DNA from: Squalus acanthias
Taxonomy: Eukaryota
Reading direction: 5' to 3'
Length of the DNA stretch: 64,000 bases
Assembly: GCA_030390025.1 (NCBI GenBank)
Contig: CM059431.1
Location: forward strand, 119,910,001-119,974,000
Part shown: in pieces, positions 25,362 to 64,000 of the stretch
Numbering within the stretch: the stretch's first letter is position 1
How the letters are laid out: every line of letters begins with the position of its first letter
Notes under the pieces: model-generated
What the model saw: only the letters and a program-made list of their open reading frames with translations
The model's database searches: none
Told to the model about the DNA's origin: nothing
Made by a program: the position numbers and the translations under genes

Positions 25362-27693
25362 CTAATACTACTACTACCTTCATCACATCTCCGTTGTAAT
25401 AGTGGACCTGCAGCTGATAGTCAGCTATCCACTTGTGCTCCCACCAGGTTTCACTGCCGTGTTTCACATCAGGCATGCTTCACATCGGAAAAGGGTTAAA
25501 CTAGCTAAAATGTTTCAAAATGGCATTACAGAGCCAATTTAGGGCTTGTTAAGGGCTTTAATGGCCTCTCCCGGCGGGACGGAGTCGGGAACACCACATA
25601 CGATTTTATCAAAATTGCGTGGAGGTGGAATGGAGGCGGGATCAGGTCCGCCCGGCACTTTTCACAATTTTAACCCCCAACACGCCTCCAAACCTGCCTC
25701 CACGGCCCTATGAAAATCCAGCCCATAATTATGTTTATTGTCAAGATTGCCTCCAGCGTTGCCTATCCTACTGCCTTCCAACACAGCATGTGGCCTGTCT
25801 GTACTGATTGATAGCTTGATTTTCTGTGTCTTAATAAACCACTTTTGATTTATCCAACAGGGCCTGATGTCCAGCTCAAGTTGGTGACAAAATGGGGATC
25901 ATGACATTGCCTGGAGAGATAAAAGTACAGGACTGAAATGACAATTGCTGCCTTTGTGCACATGGATTGGAAGCAGAAATGATTACAATTGATATTTTTT
26001 CTTACTCTTTCTTCAAATAAAGTCAATGCACAGATTTTGAGAAAGTCTTCTTCCTTAATAAATCGTAATAATTTGACAAGCTTCGATACAGTTCAACTAT
26101 AGGCTATTATTTAAAATGTGTATGGAACCAAGAATACAAAGACTAGTCTGCAGTTGGCGGCCAGAGAGAAAGCAAGAAGAAGGAACTAACATAAAGGCCA
26201 GGGTAAAGACCTGAAAAATGTAGGAGAACTACTGGTTAAAAAGATGTTCAATAAATGTGAAAATTGAGGACAAATACTATCCAAATATCTGAAGTGGCAG
26301 ACAAATAACAATCCTATATTCATGTTTTTATAGATATTTCATATAAATTTATAATATATTTCAGTAAGTTTTTTTTCTTCCTTAATTCCCCTCTCTCCAT
26401 ACCACTTACAATCCTGTTCTAAGTGCCTAGCCTTTAGTTAGCCTCTCCCAGAACAATATGTTTCAGGTCAAAACGTTCCTACATTGGGAGTCAAGTTCTA
26501 TTGTACCATGGTGCCTTTATATCCAGAAACAACAATAATCCTTCAAACTGTTGTAAATTAAGGTGATTCTTGAAATAGTGGTAGGGTTAGCCCACTAACC
26601 ATCAGGTGTGTGCTGATAACATACAGCCTGACAACACCAGACAAAATTCAGGGCTGGTGTGCATTGGGTAGATTAAATTGCTAATTTGTCTCCTCTGTTG
26701 CAGGTCTTTCACCCAATATTCCACTGTAGAGGTGGCCATAATTGTTTTTCATGAGGTACAGAAATAATAGTCCAAGGCATTCTTTGAAGTTAACATTTGA
26801 GAATCTGGAAAAATCCTCAGATTTGTTTTCTTAAATCCATGAATTTTTATTTAATTGAAGAGCCAGGTGATCTTTGAAGTATTGTTTCTCTTTAGAACGG
26901 CCAGTGGAAGTGAATGGACCATCCTTGAAGACATGAATTGCATAAATTAAATGTTAACCATTAATGGGCTAAAATTGGATAGCCCCCGAAAACGGGTGCG
27001 GTGATCGCGATGTGTGATTAACCCGTGCCCGTTCCATGTAATGCAGGCAGCATGCAAACTTGGTGCTGCCTGGTAATTATAATGATAGTGGCGTACAGCC
27101 CAGCACTAAACGTGCTGCTGAGTGGCTGCACGCTCAGCAGGGGGCCCATGTTCGTGTGAGGCTCGCACCAATTAAAGCTAGCCTCCACTTCTTCAAACCA
27201 GCTAGAACCTCTTCAATGGAAGGTGCATTCTGGCTGCAGCAGGTGCTGGAAGTCGTTGTAGAGGAGTGTGTGACCTACAGGAAGAGTCAGGATGGCAGAG
27301 AGAAGGCTCCCAGATTTTCGGGTGCAGCACTCGAGGCTCTGGTGCGGGAGCTGGACAGGAGGGGAGATGTCCTGTATCCATAGGGAGCTAGGAGGCCCTC
27401 CAGACAGACGCTGAGAAGGGAATGGGAGCAGATATCGATCGCTTTCAATGCAAGCAGTGTAGCCCTGAGGACCTGGATGCAGTGCTGGAAGAAGTTTAAT
27501 GACTTCACACGAGTGTTCATGGTCAGTGAATTCATCTTCAAATGCCATATCCCACAAACTACACCACTAACCTCACACACTGCTCAATTCACCACACCCC
27601 CATCACTCACCTACCAACAATCTCTATCAATTATGACTCATACCTCACATTCATATGCTCCATCTCACCCGCACACACTTACCACTGCTACAA

Positions 27694-28649
27694 TGTGGTG
27701 CGGTGTACAAACTTGTTTTATCAATTTCCGCGAAATCGAATTCGTAAAATTGTCTGAACATCTTGGTCAACAGGACCTGATACAACTGTTCCGTCTTTTT
27801 GGGGCACCACTCTGGTAACCGCACCTCGGTGAGATTTAAAATCACCGAGGCCACCGCGTAATGTACCCCCTGAAATAGTATCTGGTCTGTGGGGACCAGT
27901 ACCAAACCATTCCCGGGTCCCTTACTAGTTTTAGGGCACCCTTCCTCTTCAGCTAGAACCACCGGAATCGTGGGCGGGGCTTTGCGTGGGCGCGTAATGA
28001 GTTCAGTGGCATTTACCGGGATCGAAGAGTATGGGGCTCCGCACCCACTGGTGCTCGCATCCCACCTCATCCCCTGTCCGTTATCCTGCCATTGATTAAT
28101 GAAAAATATGGAGATGCCTTTGGGGCAAGCGTACTTTGACCCCCACATGCATACATAAATTCCCTCATCCGGTTCCCACCATTTGTCCCAACAGACTCTC
28201 ACTTGTCCGTTTGTCCCCGTAATTGTCCGATGGGTATTATTACCCAGTCGTTCCCACTCGACCGAAGAGTTCCTCATGTTTTTGCTCAGCTTTCACAGCC
28301 ACCACCATCGGCTCAATGGGACATTCCCACTACAAGTCAAACAAATCCGTTTGCCGACGGTGACGCTGATCCTGGGTGCGATGATCCTTACTTTGGGGCA
28401 CATTAAAGAAGTCTCTTGGTAGGCAAACCCCGATGTGCTGGAATACTCCGTCGAGTTCGTTCCCAGCCATCCTGGCCACCTTCCCTTGTGGAAATAGGTG
28501 GTGGTCTCCTCAGCCTCCCGCCTTCCGGTCCCATCCACCGCGATGGGGGCCGTGTCCCCGGAGCATCCAAACACCACGACATCCTTGGTGCGGCCTCGAT
28601 AGGCCAATCCACATCCGATTGCCGCGAGCAATACTAGAATTCGTTCCAT
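27694..28649 (-). pseudogene. env: 5' part of env (signal peptide, Ig-like domain), cut before the furin site
   Basis: Nearly identical to the env at 54381-55336; CGA>TGA nonsense at 28293-28295. Confidence 0.9.
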
Positions 28650-28724
28650 CCTTCCTTGGTTCCTGTGATCAGATAGAATGAGGTAGCCAGCCTCGCAAGA
28701 GTCTCTGGCTTTTGTGAAGGGTGA

Positions 28725-31700: not shown

Positions 31701-32046
31701 GGAGTCAGGGGAGGCGGAGCCAGCGACTGTGGTGGGACCACAGGTCGTCCCGGCGAAAGTCTCGAAACCCGGTCCGTCGGTCCTGGGATTCCTGCCCCCG
31801 ACAACTCCTCGTAGGTCAGGTCGAGCACCCTAGCCCAGGAAGATGTGGTCATGTCCCCAGACTGCCCCAAGGCGCAGGTTTAAGGTTAAGGCAGCCCAGG
31901 TAGGGCCCAGTCCCATCGCAGCAGCAACAGGCTGCGGCAGATCAAAGGAAGGGGTCAGTGCAGCAACAGGCTGCGGCGGATCAAAGGAAGGGGTCAGTGC
32001 CCTCCCACCGTCGGGAAGAGCTCGCAGCAGCCTTCTCAGAATTTAA
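28725..32046 (+). pseudogene. pol: Inverted pol fragment: RT thumb, tether, RNase H, integrase and acidic tail
   Basis: VRSFLGLTGYCR, IYVDGSS, AQQAEL, HHCC, IQIDYIGP, SDQGSHF, GIVERMN; premature TAG at 31831-31833. Confidence 0.95.
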
Positions 32047-33569: not shown

Positions 33570-35152
33570 TGTAAGGGTTTTTTTGTCTCTCAGCCTGTGA
33601 GATTCGTGTGGCTCTGTGCAGCCCGGGTGCTAGTGCGGGTTTAGGCCTTGTTGCCTGTTCTGGTCTCCAGCCAGTCTGGGAGCACTAGACACACTTGTGA
33701 GTCGTTCGACCCACTCGCCCTTACGGTTCTAGACACTGGACTTAGATGCGAGAGCAGTAATGGAGATGAAACTCAGGTAGACTCGGTTGAATGGTACGAA
33801 ATGGAAAATCTTTATTGCATATTACTTAAGATTACGAAATACATGTCATAAGCACAGATTAATGACAGTACAATCTTACACGCAGTTATGTAACTAATTT
33901 CGGGGAAACGAGGAACGAACGACACATCGTAAATGGGGGCACACATTACAATTATCCTTAATACTTAAAACCCTCCCCTATCAATATCTGTCCTAAGCTA
34001 GATTCGTAGGATTCGAGACTCATGCTCACCACTCGTGATAACTCGGAGAATTCCGAAAACTCTGATCGGATGTTTTTCACCGCAGCGCCCACGTGTCGAT
34101 CAGGGGGTCTCCTGGCCCCACTTGTTTACTCGTTTCTGCTCCGGCTAGCAGGCTGGAACGTCTGCTGTCATGAAGATCGGTGTTGACCTTGGATTCCCGA
34201 TCAAAACCTACAAAGTTCACTTATTTCGGGCGCGGTCGGGGTTTACTGACCGTGACGAGATGTATTGTCGTCTTCTCTTCTCATCTCATCTCATCTCATC
34301 TCATCTCGGGCCTTCGGTTCCAACACCGTTTACCGACTCCTCGGGATGGTGCGCCCGTTTCAAGGCTTCACAGCCCAGTTCTACACAGGTCTTCGCGACA
34401 CGACACGAGGTAGATCCGAGCGGATCGTAAAGTTCAACAGTCTTTTTTGAAAAGAGACACGAGGCAAGCAGGAACAAGACGGCGAGTCAAGAGCACAGGA
34501 GCAGCCACGAGGATAAGAGAGAGATGGACGGTTTGGAGCTTGCAATTATAGTGCAAAATCTTCCGTTTCCCGCCCAACCTTAATGTCTTTTCTTTTGTTA
34601 GGGTTTGGCGCTCAAATGTCTTGTATAGGGTGATCTTCGTTTTAATGGGTTTCGGGGCTACTCGTAAATGTCTGAGTACCTGTTAATATTTCTCCCATTG
34701 TTTAATCGGTCGGTGTTCTCCCTGGAGGGGTTTTGGGGCTTCCAAATGTTTTCTGTAACTACCCGCTAACGGCTCTCTCATCGTAGAGTCGTTGGGATTT
34801 TACATATTAATGTCTTTGGATGGGTTCTTGATTACTTGGTACAATAGCTTTTATTCGTACCTGGGAGACCGATTTCAGTATTTATGTGTATACTGTAAAC
34901 CCATGATGTCTCGTGTATTATCTTCAATGTGCTGAGTCTTAATCGATCTTGCACAAATGTTTACTGGAACGCCATCTTGTCTGCCTGTTGAAAAGTCTAG
35001 AATGTTCTGCCACGAGGTGCGGCGGCCATTTTACAAGCTGCTTGTGTCCACTTTGAAAACCTGACAGCATTCTGCTGAAATAAAAACTGTTTGAACGAAA
35101 CTCTGTGTTTTTCTCCTTATTAATAAAATCGCGATATATTGCGAATTCTACA
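33570..35152 (-). repeat. 5' LTR of the rearranged ERV (1583 bp), with PBS at 33547-33564
   Basis: TGTAAGGG...TTCTACA ends; homologous to the 1637-bp LTRs with indels; PBS TGGCGACCGTGGCAGGAC. Confidence 0.95.
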
Positions 35153-48245: not shown

Positions 48246-50896
48246 GACCAGCAGTGGGGTCGGGAGGACCAGACTGCAGCCTATGAAACCCAGGCAGAGA
48301 GGATCTGTGGGAAGGAGGGAGGAGGACAGTAGGAGTATGTTTGTGTGTGTGTGCTAGGCCACTGTAGCAGAGCCTGGTCTCCAATCGTCTTGGATCCCCT
48401 TGCCATTGGACCAAGACCTTGCTCTGTCATGCCCATGTGTTAGCTGGTGTGCAACGGCCACCCCACGTTAAACGAATTCACGCACAGGCATCTTCCACCC
48501 TTTAAAATGAAGTTCGGGACCTGGAACGTCAGGACCCTCATGGACAACCCCAACAGCGACAGACCGGAACGCCGTACTGCTATCATTGCCCGGAGCTCAG
48601 ACGTTTCGACATAGACATCGACGTCCTAAGCGAGACCCGGCGGGCAGGGGAAGGCCAGCTCAAGGAGCAAGGCGGTGGTTACACCTTGCTCTGGAAAGGC
48701 AAACCTGAAGAATACCGCCTCCATGAGGTAGGCTTCACCATAAAAAATGAGCTAGTTGAACGACTCAGAGACTCCCCTTGTGGAATGAACGAACGCCTCA
48801 TGACTCTACGGCTCATCCTAGCTCGGAACCAGTGCGCTACGGTCATCAGTGCGTACACCCCAACATTGGAAGCCACAGACGAGACCAAAGAGGAATTCTA
48901 CTCCAGCCTCGAACAATCCCTGTCCCGAGTCCCAACGGGCGACAAGCTGATCCTCCTTGGCAAATTCAACGCCAGAGTTGGAAAGGACACAGACCTCTGG
49001 TGTGTTCGGGAGAGACGGATTAGGGAAAGCCAACTCCAACGGTACCCTCCTCCTGACAAAATGCTTAGAACACGGCCTTGTCATAACCAACACCTTGTTC
49101 CGTCAGAGAGACAAGTACAAAGCTTCATGGCAACACCCTCGCTGCAAGCACTGGCATCTGCTGGACTACGTCATCATCCGAGCGAGGGACTGCAAGGACG
49201 TCCGCATCACCCACGCCATGAAAGGAGCTGATGACTGCTGGACAAACCACCGCCTAATCCGTTCTGTCATCTCCATCAACGTAGCCCCAAAACAGCGGTG
49301 GCAACAGAAGCAATGCCGCAGGAAAATCAACACTGGAGCACTCAAAGACCCTGCTAAGAAAGCCCTATTCAGCCTGCGCCTCACAAACAACCTGACGACT
49401 CCCAGTGATTGAGAGACACAGAATGTCCACAGCGCCTGGTCTGCACTCAAGGCCTCCATAATCAGCACCTGTGAAGAGACGCTCAGTCACTCGACCAGGA
49501 AACACCAAGACTGGTTCGACGAGAATGACCAGGAGATCTAGGTGCTAATAATCTGCAAGCGCAAGGCATTCCTGATCTGGAAACAGCAACAGAACTCGAG
49601 AGCAAGAAAGCAGCTCTACAGACGCCTGAAGGCTGAGGTCCAACAAAAAACTTGCGACCTAAAGAACAGATGGCGGGTGGAGAAAGCGCAGGAGATCCAG
49701 CAGCTAGCCGACAACCGAGAATTGCGTGGAGTCTTTTGTGCAGTCAAGACCACCTACGGCCCAAGCACCCAAGGTCCTACCCCACTGTGGGCCAAGAACG
49801 GAGAGGTACTCATCAAGGACAGAGAGGCAGTCAGTGCCCGCTGGAAGGAGCACTTCGAAGATCTCCTTAACCGAGACTCTGTCTTCTATGCGAGTGTCCT
49901 CAACTCCATCCCGCAGCATACTACCCGCCACCACCTCAGCACAACCCCAGCACGGCATGAGGTTGAAAAGGCCATCAGACAACTGAAGAACAACAAGGCC
50001 TCAGGAGCAGATGGAATCCCCACCGAGGTGCTAAAACATGGCGGAGAAGCACTATTGGCGCGAATACATTAACTCATTTTTCTTATTTGGAAGGAGGAGA
50101 GCATGCTAGGGGATCTCAGAGATGCCGTAATCGTGTCCGATTGTGGTAATTACAGAAGAGTCTCCCTACTGTCTGCCACAGGGAAAGTCATCGCAAGAAT
50201 CCTCCTCAATCGCCTTCTCCCAGTGGCTGAAGGGCTCCTCCCAGAATCGCAATGCTGATTCTGCCCACTACGGGGCACAATGGACATGATCTTCACCGCG
50301 TGTCAACTACAAGAGAAATGCAGGGAACAGTACCAACCGCTGTACATGGCCTTCTTTGACCTCACAAAGGCCTTCGACACCGTCAACCGTGAGGGATTAT
50401 GAAGTGTCCTCCTCAAATTCGGCTGCCCTCAAAAGTTTGTCACCATTCTCCGCCTGCTTCATGATGATATGCAAGCCGTGATCCTGACCAACGGATACAC
50501 CACATACCCAATTCACGTACGGACCGGGGTCAAGCAAGGCTGTGTCATCGCACCAATGCTCTTCTCGCTCTTCCTGGCTGCAATGCTCCATCTCACCCTC
50601 AGTAAGCTCCCCGCTGGAGTGGAGCTAATCTACAGAAAAAAAAGGAAAGCTGTTCAACCTCCGTCACCTCCAGTCAAGATCCAAGGTCGTCCCATCCTCT
50701 CATCGAATTACAGTATGCAGACGACGCTTGTGTCTGCACACACTCTGAGGCCGAACTCCAAACCATCGCTAACACCTTCACAGAAGCGTACGAGAGCATG
50801 GGCCTTACACTAAACATCCCTAAGACAAAGGTCCTCTACCAACCTGCCCCCGGCACACAGTACTGCTCCCCGATTATCAAAATCCATGATGAGGCC
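48051..50896 (+). mobile_element. RTE-clade LINE, 5' part (EN plus RT, disrupted)
   Basis: MKFGTWNVRTL at 48508, VISAYTPT, WQHPRCKHWHLLDY, KASGADGIP, GVKQGCVIAP, YADD. Confidence 0.92.
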
Positions 50897-52533
50897 TGTA
50901 AGGGATTCTGACCCTGCGTGTCTCGCAGCCTGTGAGATTCACGCGGCTCTGTGCAGCCTGTATGTCAGTGCGGGTTTAGGCCTTGTTGCCTGTTCTGGTC
51001 TCCAGCCAGTCTGGGAGCACTAGACACACCTGTGAGTGGTTCGAATCACTCGCCCTTACGGTTCTAGACACTGGACTTAGATGCGAGAGCAGTAATGGAG
51101 ATGAAACTCATGTAGACTCGGTTGAATGGTACGAAATGGAAAATCTTTATTGCATGATATTTAAGATTACGAAATACATGTCATAAGCACAGATTAATGA
51201 CAGTACAATCTTACAAGCAGTTATATAGCTGATCCTAGGGAAACGAGGAACGAACGACACACCGTAAATAGGGGCACACATTACAAGTATCCTTAATACT
51301 TAAACCCTCCCCTATCAATATCTGTCCTAGCTAGATTCGTAGGATTTCGAGACTCATGCTCACCACTCGTGATAACTCGGAGAAATTCCGAATAGCTGAT
51401 CGGATGTTTTTCACCGCAGCAACCACGTGTCGATCAGGAGGTCTCCTGGTCCCACTTGTTTACTTGCTTCTGCTCCGGCTAGCAGGCTGGACCGTCTGCT
51501 GTGATGAAGATCTGTGTTGGTTGGTTTAACAGGTACTTTCCGAATACAGCCCAGTCAATATCATCTTTGACGATCCGTTCTTGCAAGTTCAAAGAAGTCT
51601 TCCTGGCAAGGAAAACTTGGCTGTTCGACCTACAGGCACGGTCGGGATTTACTGACCGTGGCGATGAGTATGGTCTTCCTCTCTTCTCCTCTCATCTCAT
51701 CTCATCTCATCTCGGGCCTTTGGTTCCGATGCCAGTTACCAACATAGGTCTTCGTTACGCGACACGAGGTAGATCCGAACGGATCAGAAAGTTCAACAGT
51801 CTTTTTCAAAGAGGCACCAGGCAAGCAGGAACAAGACTACGAGTCAAAAACACAGGAGCAGCCAAGAGGTTACGAGTCGATCGGATAAGAGAATAAGAGA
51901 AAGATGGACGGTTGGAGCTTGTAATTATAGTACAAAATCTTCCGTTTCCCGCCCAACCTTAATGTCCTTTCTTTTGTTTGAGTTTGGCGCTCAAATGTCT
52001 TGTATGGGTGATCTCCGTTCTTAATGGGTTTCGGGGCTACTCGTAACTGTCTGAGTACCTGTTAATATTTCTCCCATTGTTAAATCGGTCGGTGTTCTCC
52101 CTGGAGGGGTTTTGGGGCTTCCAAGTGTTTTGTATAACTACCTGCTAACGGCTCTCTCATCGTAGAGTCGTTGGGATTTTACATATTAATGTCTTTTGGA
52201 TGGGCCCTTGATTACTCGGTACAATAGCTTTCATTCGTACCTGGGAGACCGATTTCAGTATTTATGTGTATACTGCAAACCCATAATGTCTCGTGTATTA
52301 TCTTCACTGTGCTGAATCTTAATCGATCTTGCACAAATGTTTATTGGAACGCCATCTTGTCTGCCTGTCGAAAAGTCTAGAATGTTCTGTCACGAGGTGC
52401 GGCGGCCATTTTACAGGTTGCTTGTGTCCACTTTGAGAAACCTGACAGCATTCTGCTGAAATAAAAGCTGTTTGAACGAAACTCTGTGTTTTCTCCTTAT
52501 TAATAAAAATCGCGATATATTGCGAATTCTACA
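50897..52533 (-). repeat. 3' LTR
   Basis: TG...CA ends; direct repeat of 61957-63593; minus-strand AATAAA at 51146-51151. Confidence 0.97.
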
Positions 52534-52546
52534 GTCCCTCCTGTTG
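52534..52546 (-). other. Polypurine tract
   Basis: CAACAGGAGGGAC immediately before the 3' LTR TG. Confidence 0.75.
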
Positions 52547-52984
52547 ATGCGAATAACTCCGCTTATCGTATCAAAAATCATAGTGGTGAGCAATATTATC
52601 TCGATTTCTCTCCGAATCCAGCAAATTAATCCCATAACTTTAACCTAATTAGGGTCTCTGTGTCGTCCTTATTTCCCAAGAAAATTACATTTTATATCAC
52701 CGTGGGCCTTTATTTGCCCTTAAACTTACACCACTTGTTTTCCTTCCCGGCGTAACCAGGCCGATGCCTCTCGTATTACCTGTATATTCATCTTTTATTC
52801 AGGGAAAGGAAAAACAACACCCAAAACGAAACAATCATTTTTAACTGTAACACCATCACCCAAAAATAATCAACACCAACTCTTAACATGTCGAGTTCCA
52901 AACGTATTTACAGTCTTTGAAAATCATGATCGAGTACAAACTTCCGCGGCGCACGTGGCGAGCGGGAATTACGCCATTTTCCGG

Positions 52985-55336
52985 TTACACGGTACTTTCA
53001 TCGTGCACGCGCACGTAACGTTCTCGCCACTCTCCCGTGTTTTCATGCTTGGTGAGGCGTTTGTCTCTTTTACAATGTACGACCAATAGGTACACTACAA
53101 TAAACACTTGACATACGACTAAAATGTGGGAGGCTATTCTGATCCATGAAGGCACTTCAATATTGGTGAACAGATTCCACCACGGTGGAACTACTATATC
53201 CAGAATGTCTGTTCCTATTTCGACAGTTTTCTGTTCTAATGTGTAAAAATGTTTCTGTGACACCGCGACGGCTTTTAAAAGCTTGGTGAGGTGTTCAGGG
53301 AGAGGGGGAATGAGGTATCCGAAATGCGCGACGAATCGTTGCAAGTCGGTGAAATTCTCTTTTACTGTGAGATGAACAGTGGATGGTTCAGGGATTGGGA
53401 TAATTCGCTGTTGTGCTACTTGAACTTCCGCCCTGGGTTTAAAACAGAAACTGCTGTCACTCACCGGACACCGGCTACGGTTTCCATGCTGGTAGTGTTG
53501 CGCTGCAGTGGTAACACAATATGTTCCACCCCCGATATATGCTACCTGCGGAGGCACATGATCTTGTGCCATTGCCTCCATGGTACAATTCATGGACTTG
53601 GCGCCAGTCGTTCTGAACCCTCACTGTGGTGTTAAAAAGGCATTCAAGTGCTGGGGGCACAGTATTATGTGTGCTCCCCTGCCACGACAACCAGAGAGAT
53701 CTGTACCTGTCATCGTTTGCTCCCAGCGGATGACGTAAGGTGGAACCGCTGCATAACGAATGTGGGCTTCCCCCTGAATGACACCAATGTTCTCTACCCG
53801 ATACACCGGGGCGGGCTTTGCTGTGTCGCCCAAAACCGGCATGCGTAAAACTATACCCATAATGGTATGGTTTGATCGTCCGCAGTCCACGGGGACTGGG
53901 TATGCTTCTGAAGCTAGCCTGAGCTGGCACGGGCTCAGTGCGTTCTGAAAAGGGTGGAGCGCCCGCAGGTGTTTGTTACTTATCCAGGACGGGACCAAAC
54001 CTTGTTTTAAATCCTCCAAATTACTGCGGCCTTCGCCCAGTAACCACGCCCCGTAAAGCACGCACACCTCGTTCTGCGCAGCTTGATCGGATGCATTCCG
54101 ATCTTCCCTAATCAGGGCATTTACCGTCTTTGCATGTTTCTCCAACTCTGCTATAATTTCCTTTAAATGGAGACTCATGGCTTGGTCCTCGTGTAGACCC
54201 GACCCTACCACTTTATTCTCATCTGTTAGAATGTCTTTTAATTGTGTCTTTAAACCATTAATCTGGGTCTGCAGCTCCACACTGTCTAGAGCGTTGACCA
54301 CAGATGTACCCGTGTTAAAAGCAGTGAACGCATCGTTCACCAAACCCCTTCTTTGCCTCCCTACTTGATCCAAAACTTCCTGTGGTGCGGTGTACAAACT
54401 TGTTTTATCAATTTCCGCGAAATCGAATTCGTAAAATTGTCTGAACATCTTGGTCAACAGGACCTGATACAACTGTTCCGTCTTTTTGGGGCACCACTCT
54501 GGTAACCGCACCTCGGTGAGATTTAAAATCACCGAGGCCACCGCGTAATTTACTCCCTGAAATAGTATCTGGTCTGTGGGGACCAGTACCAAACCATTCC
54601 CGGGTCCCTTACTAGTTTTAGGGCACCCTTCTTCCTCAGCTAGAACCACCGGAATCGTGGGCGGGGCTTTGCGTGGGCGCGTAATGAGCTCAGTGGCATT
54701 TACCGGGATCGAAGAGTATGGGGCTCCGCACCCCCTGGTGCTCGCATCCCACCTCATCCCCTGTCCGTTATCCTGCCACTGATTAATGAAAAATATGGAT
54801 ATGCCTTTGGGGCAAGGGTATTTTGACCCCCACATGCATACATAAATTCCCTCGTCCGGTTCCCACCATTTGTCCCAACAGACTTTCACTTGTCCGTTTG
54901 TCCCCGTAATTGTCCGATGGGTATTATTACCCAGTCGTTCCCACTCGACCGAAGAGTTCCTCATAGTTTTGCTCAGATTTCGCAGCCACCACCATCGGCT
55001 CAATGGGACATTCCCACTACAAGTCAAACAAATCCGTTTGCCGACGGTGACGCTGATCCTGGGTGCGATGATCCTTACTTTGGGGCACATTAAAGAAGTC
55101 TCTTTGTAGGCAAACCCCGATGTGCTAGAATACTCCGTTGAGTTCGTTCCCAGCCATCCTGGCCACCTTCCCTTGTGGAAATAGGTGCTGGTCTCCTCTG
55201 CCTCCCGTCTTCCGGTCCCATCCACCGCGATGGGGGCCGTGTCCCCGGAACATCCAAACACCACGACATCCTTGGTGCGGCCTCGATAGGCCAATCCACA
55301 TCCGATTGCCGCGAGCAATACTAGAATTCGTTCCAT
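52985..55336 (-). CDS. env: Envelope glycoprotein (783 codons, one in-frame TGA at 53621-53623): signal peptide, Ig-like domain, furin site, F-like fusion subunit, TM anchor
   Basis: MERILVLLAAIGCGLA signal; RQRR|GLV at 54347-54358; heptad repeat; TM IASHILVVCQVFIVVYLLVV. The 632-aa and 202-aa ORFs are in one frame. Confidence 0.9.
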
Positions 55337-55349
55337 CCTTCCTTGGTTC

Positions 55350-55372
55350 CTGTGATCAGATAGAATGAGGTA
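55350..55372 (-). promoter_or_regulatory. Candidate env splice acceptor
   Basis: CCTCATTCTATCTGATCACAG|G, 13 nt before the env ATG; identical in the second copy. Confidence 0.55.
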
Positions 55373-55622
55373 GCCAGCCTCGCAAGAGTCTCTGGCTTTT
55401 GTGAAGGGTGAGCGGGTCCCCTGACCTCGCCTCACGTAAACTTCAACGTTCGCTGAATAAACTTTAACTAAACCTATCTTTAAAGCTCCCATCATTTTAT
55501 CGTTTTCTGTTAAAAACACTACAATCTTAACCTTATTAAAACTATAAACTTAACCTTGAACTATGAACTTAAAACTTAAAACTTATTACTATACAGTGCC
55601 GCCCGTTCTCAGGGCGGCCCCT

Positions 55623-58600
55623 TTAAATTCTGAGAAGGCTGCTGCGAGCTCTTCCCGACGGTGGGAGGGCACTGACCCTTCCCTTTGATCTGCCGCAGCC
55701 TGTTGCTGCACTGATTCCTTCCTCTGATCTGCCGCAGCCTGTTGCTGCTGCGATGGGGCCGGGCTGTATCTGGGTTGCCTTAACCTTAAGTCTACGCCTT
55801 GGGGCAGTCTGGGGACATGACCACATCCTCCTGGGCTGGGGTTCTCTACTTGACCTACGGGGAGTTGCCATGGGCGGGGGTTCCGTGACTGACGGACCGG
55901 GTTCCGAGACTTCCATCGGGACGACCTGGGGTTCCACCACAGTCGCTGGCTCCGCCTCCGCTGACTCCGCCTCCCTAACCTCGGGGCTCGCAGTTTGTGG
56001 CTCCGCCCTGCTCGGCCCAGCAGGCGGCCCTTCACTCGCGATCTCTGCCTCCCCCGAGGGCGGGACGTTCAAAGCGGGCGGCTCTGTCTCTGGGGTCCTC
56101 ACCGTCACTCCCTGTGCTCCCACAGCGGCTGGCCCCGCCTCCCCTAGCTCCTCCCTCCTGTCTTCGGGACCTGCAGCTTGTGTGTCCACCCTGTGTGGAT
56201 CTCTATCTGCAGCCCGTATCCTCCCTATACCTAAAATGGGACCGTTCCCCAAAAACCACTCGTCTTCATCACTATCCTCATCTGACTCGAGTTCCCGGAA
56301 TTCTCCCTCATCTGACTCCCAACCCCACAAAAAGGCTTCATGATCTTCCAGGATGTCCCCTCCCCTGATGCAAGCTGCTATGCCTGCCTGTGTGCCTTGT
56401 GGTCCTACCTGGGGCTGTGCTTCCCCACTGGCGGGGTTTACCGCTGTGGTTTTCCCTTGCGCACCTGGCTTGTACAGTTTGCATTGGTTTACGTGGAACC
56501 ACTTAGTGCGCCGAGGTACTTTTACGGCGTATACCATGGGACTCGCCTTGTCTACAATGTTGTAGGGTCCCATATACAGTGGTTCCAGACTCCCTACTCT
56601 GGCATAGTTTCTGACCATGACCTGGTCTCCTACTTCCCACTCCCGCGTTTTGCGGGGTTCCAGCAGCAGGCGATTGCCCTGATGCTGCCTTCCCATGTTC
56701 CCAGCCGCCTGCTCATAAACCTGCTTCAGGCGCTCCAAGAGAGTCTGGGCGAACTTGTCCCTGCTTATCTCTTGGAGCTGACCCTCAGTGAGCACCGGCG
56801 CTAGCACATGGGTGGGGGTTCGCATGAGCCTCCCAGTCATCACCTCGTGCGGGGAGTACCCCGTACTTTTTGACTGGCTGGCCCGGACCCCCATGAGGAC
56901 TAAAGGCAGAACTTCCGCCCATTTTTGGGGCGAGTTCCTAGTCTCCTTCCTCAATTTCTCATTCAGGGTCCGGTTCATGCGTTCAACAATCCCGGATGAC
57001 TGGGGATTGTGTGCTACGTGCCACTTCCCTTCAATGCCCAAAAGCATGAGGATGTTCTGCATCACCTGGCCGGTGAAATGACTCCCTTGGTCTGACTCCA
57101 CAAAACGGGGAAGTCCCCACCGCGAGAACACTTCCCGGACCGAGATTTTTGCTGTACCCATTGCCGTAGCTGTTCGACAGGGGAAGGCTTCCACCCACTT
57201 GGAAAACACATCCACCAAGACGAGGCAGTATTTATAACCTCCCTGGGTGGTGGGCAGGGGTCCTATATAGTCGATCTGTATTGACTGCCATGGTCCCTCT
57301 ACCCTTCTTACGTGTCCCATGGGCACCTTCCTTTTCTGGGGGTCTGGGTTGTTTGCAGCGCACACAAGACAGTTTGCACAGAACTCGCGGACTTGTTCCC
57401 TGAGCCCTGGCCATCATCCCGCTTGCTCTACCCGTTGCCAGGTAACCTCGGGCCCGGGGTGCCCTGCCCCCGGTCCCTCGTGAGCCAACTGGAGGAATTC
57501 CCTCCTGTGCTGCTGCGGCACAACCCACTGCTCCTCGCGGAACAGCATGCCTTCCTTAACCGAGAGGGTTGCCGTACTGTACGGACCTTCTACCTGCCTC
57601 CCCTCAGAAATGGTTTTTAGGACTGCTTTTAGGGCGGGATCCTGGGCTTGGACGGTCTTAAGGTCTAGGGGCAATGCTACCCTGGTGTTCCCGGGATTCC
57701 CGTCCCTGCCTTGGATCGCTGCTATGGGTCTGGTCCCATAGGGGTCCCAGAAAATGCCGTTGCGGGCACCTTCCCTGGCTAGCGCATCCGCCTGCTGGTT
57801 GCCCTCCCCACGGGGCTCTGTGGAGGAGTGAGCTTTCACCTTATGGATGAAAATCTCTCCTTCCTCCCCTACTGCTGCTGCTAAGATCTTTTCCAGCAAG
57901 GGCTTCACCGTTAAAGGTCGCCCGTCCGCGGAGGTGTATCCACGGTGGGACCAAATGGCCAGGTATTCCGTACACGAATTGCAGGTGAACATACTGTCCG
58001 AGCAAATCGTGTATGGGGTTGGGAAAATGTCTGGGTGGGTAACAACGTACACCACGGCAGACAGCTCAGCCTGCTGCGCGCTCATGGTGCTAGGGAGCTT
58101 GATCGCCAGGGCAAGGTCTGCCACAGGGTCATAAACTCCACACCCTGTGAGTCGCTCGCCAGCAGATACTGTGCTAGACCCATCAACATAAATCTCGCGC
58201 CCAGTGGGATGTATCCCGGCCCGTAAACCTATGTTGACGTCCCACACCCCTTCCACCGAACATCGGTGGGCTGTACCGGGGTATACCAAATTGGCCGCAA
58301 GCCTGGGCTCGCAAAGACCTTTTACTCTAAGATCCAACTGGGAGAGAAGAAGGGTCCAACGCGCAATGCGCACGCTGCTTACGGTCCCATCTTTAATCCT
58401 CCCATCCAGAAGCATCTTAGTTGGTGTGTGATGTGTGAGGAGAGTGATGGGAGAGAGCCCTGTGAAGATCGCTGATCTTTTCACAGCCCAATGCGTGGCT
58501 AAAAGGTGCCTTTCGCAATTGGAGAAACTTCTCTCCACATCCGTTAATACCCTGGATGAATAGACAACCGGCCTCAGCTTGCCGTGACGCTCTTGGAGCA

Positions 58601-60143
58601 GCACAGCGCTCAAGCTGTCTCCGTTGGCAGCTACCTCCAGGAAAAACTCCTTCCCCCCATCTATGGCCCCTAAGGCTGGCGCGGTCTGCAGATCCCTTTT
58701 TAACTTCTCGAAGGCTGCTTGGCAGCCCTCGTCCCAAGACCACTCCACCCCCTTATGGAGGAGTTGGAGGAGCGGCGCTGCTGTGGCCGCATAGTCTTCG
58801 ATAAAGTCCCTGCAGTAACCGGTCAGTCCCAAGAAGGACCTCACACCCCTTATGTTGTTGGGAATCGGTAATTCTTGCACCGACTCCCTCCTCGCTTTGT
58901 CTATGGCTCTTTCCCCAGCGCGTATGGTCAGTCCCAGGAATTTTACTTCCCGCTGACCGATACGAGCTTTCTTAGGATTTATTTTAAAACCCTTTCTCGC
59001 TAGCAGCTCCAATAACTCGTCCAGTAGTGGTCCATGCTCCTCCCTTGAGTCCGTAAATAGGAGCAAATCATCCACGTACTGCACTATCTGATTGGGCTGA
59101 CTAAACTCCTTTAAACTTCCTGCCATACACTGATGGAAAATACTGGGGCTATTGTGGAAACCCTGTGGCAGACAGTTCCATGTGTACTGTTGTCCTTTGA
59201 AAGTAAAGGCAAACTTGTACTGGTCCTCTCGCCTCAGCGGGATGGACCAAAAACCGTTCGAGATATCCAGCACCGTGAACGTGGTCGCGGACGCTGGGAT
59301 GCTCCCTATTAGGTCAGCAACTGCTGCTACCGTGGGCGCGCAGGCGGGAATGTTACTGTTAAGGACTCTGTAGTCCACCGTGGCTCTCCACGAATTATCC
59401 GGCTTCCTAACCGGCCATAATGGGGAGTTCACGTGTGTGGCTATCGGCCTCAACACGCCCTGCTGCACCAAGGAGGACATTGCTGTCTCCATATCGGGTT
59501 CTGCTTCTTTGGGGAAGTTATACTGCTTTTGGGGTCGGGTCATGGGGTCCCCCTCTACGCTGACCTCAAACCCGATAACCCTCCCACAATCGTGCTTGTG
59601 GGTTGCAAACGCGTGCATATTATCTGACACGTACGTTTGCATGTCCGTTGGGACATCTGCGACCATAAGCCTGAGGTCGTAGCCTCCGGATGGCTGTACG
59701 GTACACAGGACCCCTGTTTCTTCCTCCCCCGGAATCACTACTACCTCGCCTTTTTCACCCTTAGCCCCCCAGAGACAGTGATTTCTGAGGTCCACGAGGA
59801 TCCCGTGTCCCGATAGAAGATCAGACCCGAGAATACCTCTTCCACCCCCCTCCTGCCATTCCATCAGTATACACTTCCACTTAAGGTGAAGTGCTCCCAA
59901 ACGAATGGATAGCGGAAGGGAGAACGCGCCAGCCTGTTCTTTTCCTGTGAACCCCGCTAACGTGAATGGGACCCTGGTAGATAGCGGCGAGTCAAAAGGG
60001 CTATCTGTATGGATTATGGTGCAAGAAGCTCCCGTGTCCAACAAATAACTACCCCTCTGTTTCTCTACCTCCATCTCCTCCAAAGGTCGCTTCCACGCAT
60101 CATAGCTAAGCGGACACAGGTAGACGGGCTGCGCGGGTTCTAG
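55623..60143 (-). CDS. pol: Pol: protease, RT, tether, RNase H, integrase, acidic tail; one nonsense at 57414-57416
   Basis: LLDTGA, LPQGFHNSP, YVDD, YVDGS..AEL..SDS..HS..NQQAD, HHCC and DDE motifs. The stop is TGG (GWWP) in the other copy, and the frame continues. Confidence 0.95.
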
Positions 60144-61952
60144 TCATGGGGTACTATTAGACGGTCCTGCGGCACTTACGGGGCCGGTTGCGACCGCCAC
60201 CTTTCCATGTGCACTCAATAGATTGCGCATGGCTCCTAACACTACTTCGAGGTCGTCGGGAGGGGTGGGTGCATTAGCTTCCCTAGCCGGGACAGGCGCC
60301 TGGGCTCGGACCGCGGGATTTTTATCCTTGGAATCTTTCCAAGGGTTCCTGCAATGCTTGCGCCAGTGCCCTGTCTTCCCACACCCGTAACAAGCATTAC
60401 TTGCCTGTGGGGCGCGATTACCCTCCTGATGCCGCTCTCTTTGATACGGGGCTGCGGGTCGTACCTCATGTACTTTTCCCTTAAGGGGACGTGTTGCCAT
60501 ACCCCTTATATTGCGATATCCTAACGTGAGTCGATTCAAGACCGACTCTTCCGTAATGTTGGGGTCATTGGGATCAAACCATGCTTTTGCCTGCTCTCTG
60601 ACGGCTGATAAACTGTTGGCTATTATGCACCTAAGCCAATGAGCTAAACCGGCGCCTTCCACATCTTCGCGCTCGGGCGCACCTAGACAGCTGCGCTCAT
60701 ATACTGGCCACAGCCTGTCGGCAAAAACCTTCGGGGGTTCTCCCTCCATCTGCACTGTCTGTCCCACTCTAGCAAACGGACCTTCATCGTCCGCCCCCAA
60801 CACTTCCAGGACCTCATTCTTTAATGCCTCATAAGTCTTGGTTCCCCTCTTGCTCTCGCCTGAGAGACACTGAAGGATTGTACTGCCTAACGAAAACAAC
60901 AGCATTTTTGCTGTTTCCCCATCATCGCAGCCGTTAATGGCTGCGGTTTGCTCAACTTCTCTGAAATGTACGGAAGGGTCGTCTGACTCGGTCAGCTTCC
61001 GTACGTGATTTATCATAACTCTCAGCTGGTGTGAGCTGTGAGGCAACACAAGCTGTCCGAGGAGATCCCCTGGTTCTTCCCCACCGTTTCTGTTTGGGCC
61101 CCTTTTAATACCCGTTACTGGATACAACGGTCCCTTTTCCACTTCTTTCTCAATGGGCTCTTTCGTTTCTTCCATTGCTTCCTCCCTAACCCAGGTTTCC
61201 GAATAGCTGGGTGGCGCGGAGGGCGCAGTGGCTACTACTTCCTCTGCTTTACTTGGTGGGGATTTCTTAAACTTCTCACTTACTAACGGCTGGTGTGCTG
61301 ACGGACTGATAAGGCACACCATGCCGTGCGCTTTGTTCACGGCCTTTTTGAGGTGCTCTATCTCTTTTTGGCAGGCGCTATGATCGGCTCCCTGAAACTT
61401 ATCCTCAAGGGCCAACTTATATGCCGCCCTAACCCCCGTTAAGCTCTCTTCCTGAGTTCTTATCTGGGCAGCTTGGCGGGCACATCGTTCCTCTAACCTG
61501 CTCTCATTTAACTTTGCCTCAGTGACCTGACACTCGAGGTAATCTATCCTTGTTTTATTGTGACTGGAGATTTCCTGGCGTTCTTGGTGCAACGCACTTA
61601 AATTCCTAATGAGCATTTCCCCTCCAGAAACCTTCTCATCCATTTCTCCCTCTAAATGACTGATTCGAGCTACTAGCGCTGTAATGGTCTGGTTTGAAAT
61701 CTGAACCTGCCTTTTGTAACACATAAGCCAGACTGCTTTCTCGAGTGTCTTTTTATGTTCTTTACTATCTGTCCACCTTTCGGCTGCCTCTAGTGGACTT
61801 TTATCCGCTAACAATTCACTTATCCATTTCTTAGTTAGATTAACCTTTCCGAACACATAATCTGCTATCTTTTCCTGCATAACATTTCGTACAGTCACAC
61901 CAAAGTCTAACACACTACCCTCTCGCTGCCAGTGTCCTGCCGCGGTCGCCAT
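60144..61952 (-). CDS. gag: Gag (602 aa, intact)
   Basis: Coiled-coil N-terminal region, PSAPPSY, MHR-like QMEGEPPKVFADRL and CCHC knuckle CYGCGKTGHWRKHC. Confidence 0.93.
   Translation of the reverse strand: MATAAGHWQREGSVLDFGVTVRNVMQEKIADYVFGKVNLTKKWISELLADKSPLEAAERWTDSKEHKKTLEKAVWLMCYKRQVQISNQTITALVARISHLEGEMDEKVSGGEMLIRNLSALHQERQEISSHNKTRIDYLECQVTEAKLNESRLEERCARQAAQIRTQEESLTGVRAAYKLALEDKFQGADHSACQKEIEHLKKAVNKAHGMVCLISPSAHQPLVSEKFKKSPPSKAEEVVATAPSAPPSYSETWVREEAMEETKEPIEKEVEKGPLYPVTGIKRGPNRNGGEEPGDLLGQLVLPHSSHQLRVMINHVRKLTESDDPSVHFREVEQTAAINGCDDGETAKMLLFSLGSTILQCLSGESKRGTKTYEALKNEVLEVLGADDEGPFARVGQTVQMEGEPPKVFADRLWPVYERSCLGAPEREDVEGAGLAHWLRCIIANSLSAVREQAKAWFDPNDPNITEESVLNRLTLGYRNIRGMATRPLKGKVHEVRPAAPYQRERHQEGNRAPQASNACYGCGKTGHWRKHCRNPWKDSKDKNPAVRAQAPVPAREANAPTPPDDLEVVLGAMRNLLSAHGKVAVATGPVSAAGPSNSTP
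61934..61951 (-). other. Primer-binding site, tRNA-Arg(UCG)
   Basis: TGGCGACCGCGGCAGGAC is complementary to the vertebrate tRNA-Arg-TCG 3' end GTCCTGCCGCGGTCG-CCA (recalled sequence). Confidence 0.85.
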
Positions 61953-61956
61953 TTTC

Positions 61957-63593
61957 TGTAAGGGATTCTGACCCTGCGTGTCTCGCAGCCTGTGAGATTC
62001 ACGCGGCTCTGTGCAGCCTGTATGTCAGTGCGGGTTTAGGCCTTGTTGCCTGTTCTGGTCTCCAGCCAGTCTGGGAGCACTAGACACACCTGTGAGTGGT
62101 TCGAATCACTCGCCCTTACGGTTCTACACACTGGACTTAGATGCGAGAGCAGTAATGGAGATGAAACTCATGTAGACTCGGTTGAATGGTACGAAATGGA
62201 AAATCTTTATTGCATGATATTTAAGATTACGAAATACATGTCATAAGCACAGATTAATGACAGTACAATCATACAAGCAGTTATATAGCTGATCCTAGGG
62301 AAACGAGGAACGAACGACACACCGTAAATAGGGGCACACATTACAAGTATCCTTAATACTTAAACCCTCCCCTATCAATATCTGTCCTAGCTAGATTCGT
62401 AGGATTTCGAGACTCATGCTCACCACTCGTGATAACTCGGAGAAATTCCGAATAGCTGATCGGATGTTTTTCACCGCAGCAACCACGTGTCGATCAGGAG
62501 GTCTCCTGGTCCCACTTGTTTACTTGCTTCTGCTCCGGCTAGCAGGCTGGACCGTCTGCTGTGATGAAGATCTGTGTTGGTTGGTTTAACAGGTACTTTC
62601 CGAATACAGCCCAGTCAATATCATCTTTGACGATCCGTTCTTGCAAGTTCAAAGAAGTCTTCCTGGCAAGGAAAACTTGGCTGTTCGACCTACAGGCACG
62701 GTCGGGATTTACTGACCGTGGCGATGAGTATGGTCTTCCTCTCTTCTCCTCTCATCTCATCTCATCTCATCTCGGGCCTTTGGTTCCGATGCCAGTTACC
62801 AACATAGGTCTTCGTTACGCGACACGAGGTAGATCCGAACGGATCAGAAAGTTCAACAGTCTTTTTCAAAGAGGCACCAGGCAAGCAGGAACAAGACTAC
62901 GAGTCAAAAACACAGGAGCAGCCACGAGGTTACGAGTCGATCGGATAAGAGAATAAGAGAAAGATGGACGGTTGGAGCTTGTAATTATAGTACAAAATCT
63001 TCCGTTTCCCGCCCAACCTTAATGTCCTTTCTTTTGTTTGAGTTTGGCGCTCAAATGTCTTGTATGGGTGATCTCCGTTCTTAATGGGTTTCGGGGCTAC
63101 TCGTAACTGTCTGAGTACCTGTTAATATTTCTCCCATTGTTAAATCGGTCGGTGTTCTCCCTGGAGGGGTTTTGGGGCTTCCAAGTGTTTTGTATAACTA
63201 CCTGCTAACGGCTCTCTCATCGTAGAGTCGTTGGGATTTTACATATTAATGTCTTTTGGATGGGCCCTTGATTACTCGGTACAATAGCTTTCATTCGTAC
63301 CTGGGAGACCGATTTCAGTATTTATGTGTATACTGCAAACCCATAATGTCTCGTGTATTATCTTCACTGTGCTGAATCTTAATCGATCTTGCACAAATGT
63401 TTATTGGAACGCCATCTTGTCTGCCTGTCGAAAAGTCTAGAATGTTCTGTCACGAGGTGCGGCGGCCATTTTACAGGCTGCTTGTGTCCACTTTGAGAAA
63501 CCTGACAGCATTCTGCTGAAATAAAAGCTGTTTGAACGAAACTCTGTGTTTTCTCCTTATTAATAAAAATCGCGATATATTGCGAATTCTACA
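61957..63593 (-). repeat. 5' LTR
   Basis: 1637 bp; only 4 mismatches to the 3' LTR found by eye. Confidence 0.97.
62984..63018 (-). promoter_or_regulatory. Candidate LTR core promoter
   Basis: GGGCGGGAAACGGAAG (GC box/E2F/ETS-like) followed by TATAAT; largely kept in all three LTRs. Confidence 0.5.
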
Positions 63594-64000
63594 GGCCTTG
63601 GACAATGTAGACCACTTTCCATACCTCGGGAGCCTACTGTCAACAAGGGCAGGCATCGATGATGAAGTCCAACACCGCCTGCAGTGTGCCAGTCCAGCCT
63701 TCGGTCGCCTGAGGAAGAGAGTGTTTGAAAACCAGGACCTCAAACCCAGCACCAAGCTCATGGTCTACAGAGTAGTAGTGATACCCGCCCTCCTGTATGC
63801 TTCAGAGACATGGACCATGTACAGCAGGCACCTCAAAGCACTGGAGAAGTACCACCAATGCTGCCTCCGCAAGATCCTGCAAATCCATTGGCAGGATAGG
63901 CGCACCAACGTCAGTGTTCTCGCTCAGGCCAACATCCCCAGCATCGAAGCTTTGACCACGCTCGATCAGCTCCGATGGACGGGCCACATCGCCCGCATGT
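63594..64000 (+). mobile_element. RTE LINE continuation after the ERV
   Basis: Removing the ERV and one GGCC restores the frame KIHDEALDNVDHFPYLGS. Confidence 0.92.

Follow-up and report, generated by a model that had tools for sequence, protein, structure and literature searches.

An endogenous retroviral envelope of Squalus acanthias with an F-type fusion core and a probable immunoglobulin-like N-terminal module

The window analysed here is a stretch of 64,000 nucleotides from Squalus acanthias (GenBank assembly GCA_030390025.1, contig CM059431.1, positions 119,910,001 to 119,974,000 of the forward strand). On its minus strand it contains an endogenous retrovirus (ERV), and the env gene of this element is the subject of this report. 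The explanation that best covers the whole, and that we favour with moderate confidence, is that this env belongs to a recently active ERV family and encodes a class I fusogen of the paramyxovirus F type, to which an N-terminal module with an immunoglobulin (Ig)-like core has been added. The parts of the gene are as follows, in coordinates of the window.

52988..55336, minus strand: env, 783 codons with one in-frame TGA, from reading of the frame; the terminal stop is at 52985-52987
53621-53623, minus strand: the in-frame TGA, codon 572, in a conserved column of the family alignment
55286..55336, minus strand: putative signal peptide, residues 1-17, from hydrophobicity and position, with a helix at residues 2-11 in the model
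55085..55285, minus strand: N1 segment, residues 18-84, from alignments; the WPGWLGxNST motif, C29 and C84 are kept among elasmobranch relatives
54791..55084, minus strand: probable Ig-like domain, residues 85-182, with C103/C106, W115-117, R-T-I-T-G, C153, D161-x-G-x-Y-x-C167 and GISIFFI
54626..54790, minus strand: Pro-rich linker, residues 183-237, with a NATEL sequon; the fastest-evolving part
54347..54625, minus strand: F2-equivalent, residues 238-330, starting with the family-wide motif CP..GP..GL and ending with RQRR; predicted local distance difference test (pLDDT) score 77-89
52988..54346, minus strand: F1-equivalent, residues 331-783, with fusion peptide, heptad repeat A (HRA), domains I and II (DI/DII), heptad repeat B (HRB), transmembrane (TM) segment and short tail

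A first-pass annotation, made from the letters of the sequence, had named a series of motifs in this frame, and all of them were found on the minus strand. VTVGKRICLTC is at residues 96-106 (nt 55019-55051), RWWW at residues 114-117 (nt 54986-54997), DEGIYVC at residues 161-167 (nt 54836-54856) and RQRR at residues 327-330 (nt 54347-54358), followed directly by GLVNDAFTAFNTG (residues 331-343). In the F1-equivalent, the presumed fusion peptide spans residues 331-355, and the long predicted helices at residues 352-444 and 679-711 are HRA and HRB, respectively. The beta-rich DI/DII part covers residues 477-645, there are nine Cys in the ectodomain beyond residue 424, and the TM segment (residues 734-753) is the hydrophobic peak of the protein. 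Eleven N-glycosylation sequons are present in Env, four of them in the N-terminal module. No CX6CC was found in Env by regular expression, which ruled out a classical gamma-type Env, and no retroviral TM or surface subunit (SU) family of Pfam matched the window's Env. A co-opted host gene was also ruled out, because env lies inside a long terminal repeat (LTR) provirus with more than 100 near-identical copies.

The fusion core was examined with a structural model. An exhaustive HMMER search gave 50 matches at E <=0.001 in 1.84 billion representatives, and these matches, together with env frames taken unaltered from other lineages of the same genome, made up an alignment of 65 rows. With this alignment the protein, bridged with X at the TGA, was folded by AlphaFold2. 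The mean pLDDT of the model is 57, and residues 241-310 and 420-650 reach 60-90. Foldseek found 234 matches in the PDB at E <=0.001, the best being the F protein of human parainfluenza virus 3 (hPIV3; E 6.8e-11), and all matches listed, down to rank 48, are paramyxo- or pneumovirus F. Among predicted viral structures (BFVD), the matches were arthropod mononegavirus glycoproteins, baculovirus F, paramyxovirus F0 and two fish epsilonretrovirus Envs; one alloherpesvirus protein and one malacoherpesvirus protein were also matched. The model contains the ectodomain fold of F domains I, II and III, and the basic cleavage site, fusion peptide, HRA, HRB and TM segment follow one another in that order, with the cleavage motif kept in most relatives. 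The class I fusion subunit is thus strongly supported by the model as F-type, and the F-like fusogen proposed in the first-pass annotation was borne out.

Several points weigh against this assignment. The link to F comes from structure, and sequence methods give none: PF00523 (Fusion_gly) was not matched by the window's Env at E <=1 or by any of 20 relatives at E <=0.1, and a search of the PDB with a family profile of six sequences returned no F protein at E <=10. F structures were part of the training set of AlphaFold, and the model may be biased toward them. The presumed fusion peptide is only weakly hydrophobic. The present copy is also defective, with one stop in env and another in the integrase, and full-length Env cannot be made from it. 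In other Pfam scans, Baculo_F was weakly matched in one relative (E 0.0011), and the window's whole Env gave a weak Ig_3 match (E 0.094) and a domain of unknown function (DUF), and nothing else.

The position of the additional module relative to F can be read from two alignments. In the structural alignment, F is matched from model residue 243-245 onwards. The counterpart in F is residue 23-38, where the mature protein starts. Distant full-length relatives align only from residue ~221-235 onwards, at the conserved CP..GP..GL. It follows that a module of about 220 residues (18-237), with residues 85-182 as its core, has been added ahead of the F2-equivalent and behind the signal peptide. A second furin site between the module and F2 was considered and rejected, as the candidate RPRK is not conserved in relatives; with no conserved second cleavage site, the module should remain part of the SU-like subunit.

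Residues 85-182 carry a full Ig-type signature. It consists of an A'-B stretch of the form V.V..G..h.L.C, a Trp 11 residues past C106, R-T-I-T-G in the D strand, alternating hydrophobic residues in the E strand and DxGxYxC, and the spacing of C106, W117 and D161..C167 is that of an Ig domain. HMMER aligned C106, the second Cys of CLTC, and not C103 with the canonical Ig B-strand Cys. When the protein was shuffled 20,000 times with its composition preserved, a reduced form of the signature, C-x(9,14)-W-x(30,60)-D-x-G-x-Y-x-C, appeared in 3 shuffles and DxGxYxC by itself in 24. When the domain was scanned alone, Pfam Ig_3 matched seven of seven lineage representatives (E 9e-4 to 4.3e-3, profile positions 5-74 of 78; 4.3e-3 for the window's own domain) and was the sole family matched in six of them; three of six had matched in earlier scans of longer pieces. 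In a PDB search with a profile of seven module sequences, the top match was the CRTAM IgV domain (E 0.009), aligned across the whole domain and with the Cys, Trp and DxGxYxC in register. The same profile also listed DIP-eta, neurotrimin and the non-Ig protein ArfGAP1 (E 0.041), and phmmer with the whole Env gave weak PDB matches only (JAM-A Ig, E 0.52). In a protein-language-model atlas the ten best family-bearing neighbours were all Ig V-set, I-set or ig (scores 0.91-0.94), a uniform family list also being possible for a third of shuffled proteins. Strands are predicted at residues 85-97, 102-107, 131-136, 139-146, 149-155 and 164-166, at Ig positions (pLDDT 34-57). Membership of the PVR/nectin group by an FG-loop motif was considered by eye and rejected, as the motif is not conserved.

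Other results weigh against an Ig fold, and most of them would equally suit a different reading, namely that the N-terminal module is some other Cys- and Trp-rich beta domain, possibly still a receptor-binding head, in which the Ig signature is convergent or coincidental. All Ig scores are below the curated cut-off of the Ig clan (for Ig_3, 18 bits against 30). Confidence is low in both structure predictions: pLDDT is 24-57 over residues 1-237 in the alignment-based model, and single-sequence AlphaFold2 of residues 1-339 gave a mean of 31, with values below 50 throughout. Ig domains are usually folded confidently by AlphaFold, and the low pLDDT therefore counts against a typical Ig domain. Comparison by hhalign with 20 host antigen-receptor V-set exons reached a probability of 1.3 % over 17 columns at the B strand, with a shallow query (effective number of sequences, Neff, 1.76), and comparison with the N-modules of other Envs was not significant either. 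The Trp runs are unusual, there are two extra conserved Cys (C103 and C153), and a few non-Ig chains such as ArfGAP (E 0.041) are among the weak PDB profile matches. However, three different methods rank Ig families first, the alignments cover the whole domain with all canonical positions in register, the pattern is as rare in shuffles as stated above, and the predicted strands coincide with those expected of an Ig domain. We consider the non-Ig reading unlikely, and an Ig-like fold of residues 85-182 probable on sequence evidence that is below threshold and is not accompanied by a confidently predicted fold. The Ig domain proposed in the first-pass annotation is retained in this qualified form. 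Of the AlphaFold and Foldseek check that it had proposed for both parts of the protein, with the stop bridged, the core part gave the expected match to F and residues 85-182 did not give a confident Ig fold.

The module is well conserved in matches from skate and shark genomes, and also in several lineages of the same genome that are 47-72 % identical to the window's Env. In seven pairwise comparisons of the Ig part with other lineages, dN (nonsynonymous divergence) was 0.25-0.29, and dS (synonymous divergence) was >2.5 in four and too saturated to compute in the other three. At the level of these comparisons, the N-terminal module is under purifying selection.

More distant Envs differ at the N-terminus, and the N-terminal states were compared among 11 Envs in which it is readable. 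An Ig-like module was found in six, namely the window's Env, two Rhinoraja matches of its group, P0013 from Chiloscyllium, and P0019 and P0050 from frogs. The N-module of P0034 is V-set-like, three shark Envs have a different, Cys-rich N-module, and in coelacanth P0047 and P0039 the signal peptide leads straight to the core. A profile of four distant Ig-like modules (two from frogs, one from a shark and one other) matched TIGIT (E 4.6e-4) and JAM-A (E 0.019) in the PDB, and almost all of its 89 matches at E <=10 are Ig V domains; the UniRef name of P0013 is 'Ig-like domain-containing protein'. Against this, hhalign of the window's module with the Ig-like modules of distant Envs gave a probability of 0.2 %, so that a single origin of the modules is no more than possible.

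A quick maximum-likelihood tree of the F core was made from 23 rows, midpoint-rooted and with SH-aLRT (Shimodaira-Hasegawa approximate likelihood ratio test) support; rows with <280 core residues were left out unless their N-terminal state was known. Ig-like modules are present in both major clades, each supported at 99, and the V-set-like P0034 and the module-less P0039 are sister to each other (97). Several branches are long. This distribution of modules, as far as such a tree can place them, fits repeated gain, loss or exchange. The CxxC in the presumed B strand (CLTC, residues 103-106) is kept across the Ig-like group. As the Cys-rich N-modules of the other shark Envs have a similar CxxC (CFTC, CVQC) and end in ..LYVCF, they may be a derived form of the same domain. 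Two further word-indexed protein searches returned four and one matches. P0003, P0008, P0011 and P0038 are chimeric gene models in which Env pieces are fused to Niban-like, C2H2 zinc-finger, cadherin and F-box host genes, and are likely to be annotation artefacts from ERV insertions.

The first-pass annotation had described the Ig domain as captured. A recent capture from a host gene of this fish lineage has in its favour that the Ig fold is overwhelmingly of host type and that the host genome is rich in V-set domains (150 exons scored at E <=1e-10). However, all 50 matches of the exhaustive search contain Env-homologous sequence, some of them being chimeric gene models, and none is a host Ig protein, and the search for the closest host Ig domain that the annotation had proposed revealed no donor, the hhalign comparison with host V domains not being significant. 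The module is moreover common to Env lineages with saturated synonymous sites and to several elasmobranch species, and Ig-like modules are found in distant shark and frog Envs and in both major clades of the F-core tree. Recent capture is thus very improbable, and this part of the earlier proposal was abandoned.

We infer a beta-sandwich fold for the module, receptor binding by it and triggering of fusion. RQRR would be the furin site, with cleavage expected after R330. The N-module would be the receptor-binding head, because the virus encodes no separate attachment protein. After cleavage it would stay on F2 in the trimer, where its binding to a cell-surface molecule would release the F-type refolding that merges the membranes. 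By analogy with published precedents, receptor binding is the most likely role of the module. The first-pass annotation had offered receptor binding and immune decoy side by side; the former is a reasonable reading by this analogy, and nothing was found that supports the latter.

An Ig-like module could instead serve mainly as an antibody shield for the F head, as a decoy mimic of a host adhesion or immune-receptor ligand, or as a prefusion clamp, with attachment located elsewhere on Env. The best PDB matches are IgV domains of immune and adhesion proteins (CRTAM, TIGIT and JAM-A), the module bears four of the 11 sequons of Env, and two of the 11 relatives with a readable N-terminus lack it, so the F core can exist without a module. 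However, the provirus has no separate attachment gene, the modules that F scaffolds have gained in the published precedents are receptor-binding domains (RBDs) in the available text (PMC11468914), the strong purifying selection fits a binding surface equally well, and no measured result favours a decoy. We consider such a role quite unlikely and retain the receptor-binding head as the preferred reading. A bolder proposal, which we regard as doubtful, is that vertebrate retroviruses with F-type Envs are an old modular family whose nectin/PVR-like IgV head (CRTAM, TIGIT and JAM-A being the best matches) has been repeatedly gained, lost or exchanged. On entry these viruses would then imitate an Ig adhesion molecule of the host and bind the natural Ig partner of that molecule, and the present family, in which dozens of env frames at 98-100 % identity are open, may remain infectious.

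Among the closest published groups are the lokiretroviruses, which have an F-like Env and are described from five vertebrate classes; in the supplement of that study the screen of Chondrichthyes genomes was negative (PMC7947760). Lokiretroviruses are vertebrate ERVs with a dual RNase H and an F-like Env, both of which were found here, and their Env is described with a signal peptide, an RxKR-type cleavage site, a fusion peptide, a coiled coil and a TM segment, as in the present one (PMC7947760). The start of their core (..PGP..G[IL]V..) and several later motifs also resemble the present family by eye. In contrast, in 11 of 12 published consensus Envs (of 23) the core follows directly after the leader, with no N-module or Ig motif (the twelfth is a C-terminal fragment), whereas 220 residues separate the signal peptide from the F2-like core in the present Env. 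Of six short Env motifs of the present family, five were absent from the available part of the lokiretrovirus supplement and the other, ESIG, occurred twice, outside Env. The lokiretrovirus Env is reported to match PF00523 (E 2.2e-7, PMC7947760), which the present family does not. The word 'immunoglobulin' is absent from the main text of PMC7947760 and of its follow-up.

Foamy virus Env, solved by cryo-electron microscopy, is an F scaffold with an inserted RBD (PMC11468914). Like the present Env, it is a retroviral Env on a paramyxo-/pneumovirus F scaffold that carries its own RBD because there is no separate attachment protein. The differences, on the published description, are that the foamy virus RBD is inside the F2-equivalent, between N-SU and C-SU, while the present module precedes the whole F2-equivalent, and that the foamy virus Env leader peptide has a second membrane span, which the present Env lacks (PMC11468914). 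In coronavirus spike, receptor-binding modules are N-terminal to an F-related fusion core, as here, but S1 is far larger, multi-domain and unrelated in sequence, and the likeness is an architectural analogy only (PMC11468914, Fig. 5, in the available text). The F proteins of paramyxoviruses and pneumoviruses share with the present Env the domain I/II/III fold, a furin site before the fusion peptide, HRA and HRB, and a C-terminal TM segment. They lack an N-terminal module and depend on a separate attachment protein, they have no detectable sequence similarity to the present Env, and its fusion peptide is much less hydrophobic than theirs.

Errantiviruses, like the present element, have an F-type fusogen on a retroelement (PMC13524379), and baculovirus F is among the matches. 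However, errantiviruses are invertebrate Ty3/gypsy elements, for which the available text reports no homologous intact elements in vertebrates and makes no mention of an Ig-like or receptor-binding module (PMC13524379). Among epsilonretroviruses, the Env polyproteins of walleye epidermal hyperplasia virus 1 (WEHV-1; E 3.7e-10) and walleye dermal sarcoma virus (WDSV; E 1.2e-5) were matched in BFVD, that is, as predicted structures. These walleye Envs are 1159-1317 aa long and gave no sequence match to the present Env, and we found no paper calling an epsilonretrovirus Env F-like. Gammaretroviral SU is described as having an RBD with an Ig-like beta-sandwich core at the Env N-terminus but without the canonical Ig sequence signature, and this RBD sits on a gamma-type TM with CX6CC and an immunosuppressive domain. 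A TM of this type is absent from the present Env, which has no CX6CC.

The architecture had been put forward in the first-pass annotation as undescribed, and this holds for only part of it. F-type retroviral Envs are already known (PMC7947760, PMC11468914), as are add-on receptor modules on F scaffolds, on what the available text of these papers reports. No Ig-like module on an F-type retroviral Env was found in the literature searched, which is thin on subscription journals. The N-terminal Ig-like module, and an F-type Env of this kind in cartilaginous fishes, appear to be new.

The provirus that carries env, and the related env piece elsewhere in the window, are made up of the following features.

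50897..63593, minus strand: complete LTR provirus (LTR-gag-pol-env-LTR), ~12.7 kb, from the LTR pair, TG..CA ends, 4 bp target duplication and Pfam matches in gag and pol
61957..63593, minus strand: 5' LTR, 1637 bp, from comparison of the LTR pair
50897..52533, minus strand: 3' LTR, 1637 bp, from comparison of the LTR pair
50893..50896, second copy 63594-63597: target-site duplication GGCC, 4 bp, read from the flanks
60147..61952, minus strand: gag frame, with a coiled-coil-rich N-terminal part and one weak CCHC knuckle
57417..60143, minus strand: pol, with protease, reverse transcriptase (RT), RNase H-like tether, RNase H and the start of the integrase zinc finger (Pfam)
55626..57413, minus strand: remaining integrase (core and SH3-like C-terminal domain) and a long low-complexity tail (Pfam rve, 7.7e-15)
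27693..28649, minus strand: second, partial copy of the env N-terminal part (residues 1-319, 96.9 % identical), by tblastn

The order gag, pol, env is kept in the provirus. The gag frame ends at a stop at 60144-60146 and is in frame with pol. The same arrangement, one common frame with a single stop between the two genes, exists in epsilonretroviruses. The long gag frame has its first ATG only ~5 nt past the 5' LTR, where it overlaps the presumed primer-binding site TGGCGACCGCGGCAGG... (61915-61960). Because of this overlap the gag start is uncertain, and the true start probably lies further downstream. The N-terminal third of gag is rich in predicted coiled-coil-type sequence, and Pfam found nothing in the gag frame beyond a weak LXG match (E 0.4) and the weak CCHC knuckle (E 0.29). 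In pol, the matches to RVT_1 (2.4e-36), RT_RNaseH_2 (1.8e-20) and RNase_H (9.1e-20) indicate a dual RNase H. Among solved polymerases, the RT was closest to those of the gammaretroviral xenotropic murine leukaemia virus-related virus and murine leukaemia virus (XMRV/MLV; 8.1e-69), followed by foamy virus protease-RT (PR-RT; 1.1e-64) and Ty3 (2.9e-41). The gag-pol organization of foamy virus differs from that of the present element. Pol is interrupted by an in-frame stop at 57414-57416, and the integrase zinc-binding domain is thereby divided over two frames. An SMC-like gene is sometimes present in published lokiretroviruses, according to the available text (PMC7947760), and the coiled-coil-rich part of gag may conceivably be linked to it.

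The provirus interrupts a LINE-like (long interspersed nuclear element) RT frame, which by eye resumes across the insertion (49542-50911 and 63520-63999); Pfam gave no match in the two flanking frames at E <=0.001. The partial env copy belongs to a second, rearranged relative of the same element, in three pieces between 27693 and 35152. A related pol fragment on the plus strand (28687-31833; tether, RNase H and integrase by Pfam) abuts the env piece, and two LTR-like stretches (33584-34185 and 34375-35152) show 91-93 % identity with the provirus LTR. At 18524-20976, three adjoining minus-strand frames with an RVT_1 reverse transcriptase (2.8e-27) are within a stretch of strong negative GC skew (-0.30 to -0.38) and are probably another retroelement. 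A tandem-repeat scan of 17-23 kb found none.

The LTRs of the provirus are 99.756 % identical across 1637 bp (four mismatches), with a TG start and a CA end. Under an assumed neutral rate of 1e-9 per site per year, their divergence corresponds to roughly a million years. For the N-terminal part of Env, 119 copies (among 7608 first-look candidates) were scored at 98-100 % identity, with an open frame of at least 840 aa across the match in 73 of the 119, and env was a single open frame in six of ten own-family loci examined. On balance, we consider that env belongs to a recently active, young and abundant ERV family in a cartilaginous-fish genome. Contigs of four sequencing runs covered all parts of 52535-63593 and showed no leader-to-env splice joint. 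In two of the runs, guessed to be RNA, depth was greater over env and the LTR than over pol; these runs were selected by env, contig depth cannot rank genes, and nothing was concluded from the difference.

As a rule, an F-type fusogen depends on a second protein for finding the cell. If the reading preferred here is correct, this Env would represent a third and much simpler solution, after those of foamy virus and coronavirus, in which receptor modules were added to the F scaffold, in the form of a single Ig-like domain at the extreme N-terminus, and it would do so in a retrovirus group not previously reported from cartilaginous fishes. The module would be a compact candidate for receptor discovery. 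Because some relatives bear an Ig-like head, others a different, Cys-rich one and others none, the family would also provide a natural series for the study of how class I fusogens acquire receptor modules. Finally, the youth and abundance of the family and its many open env frames are relevant to the question of whether such viruses are still circulating in elasmobranchs.

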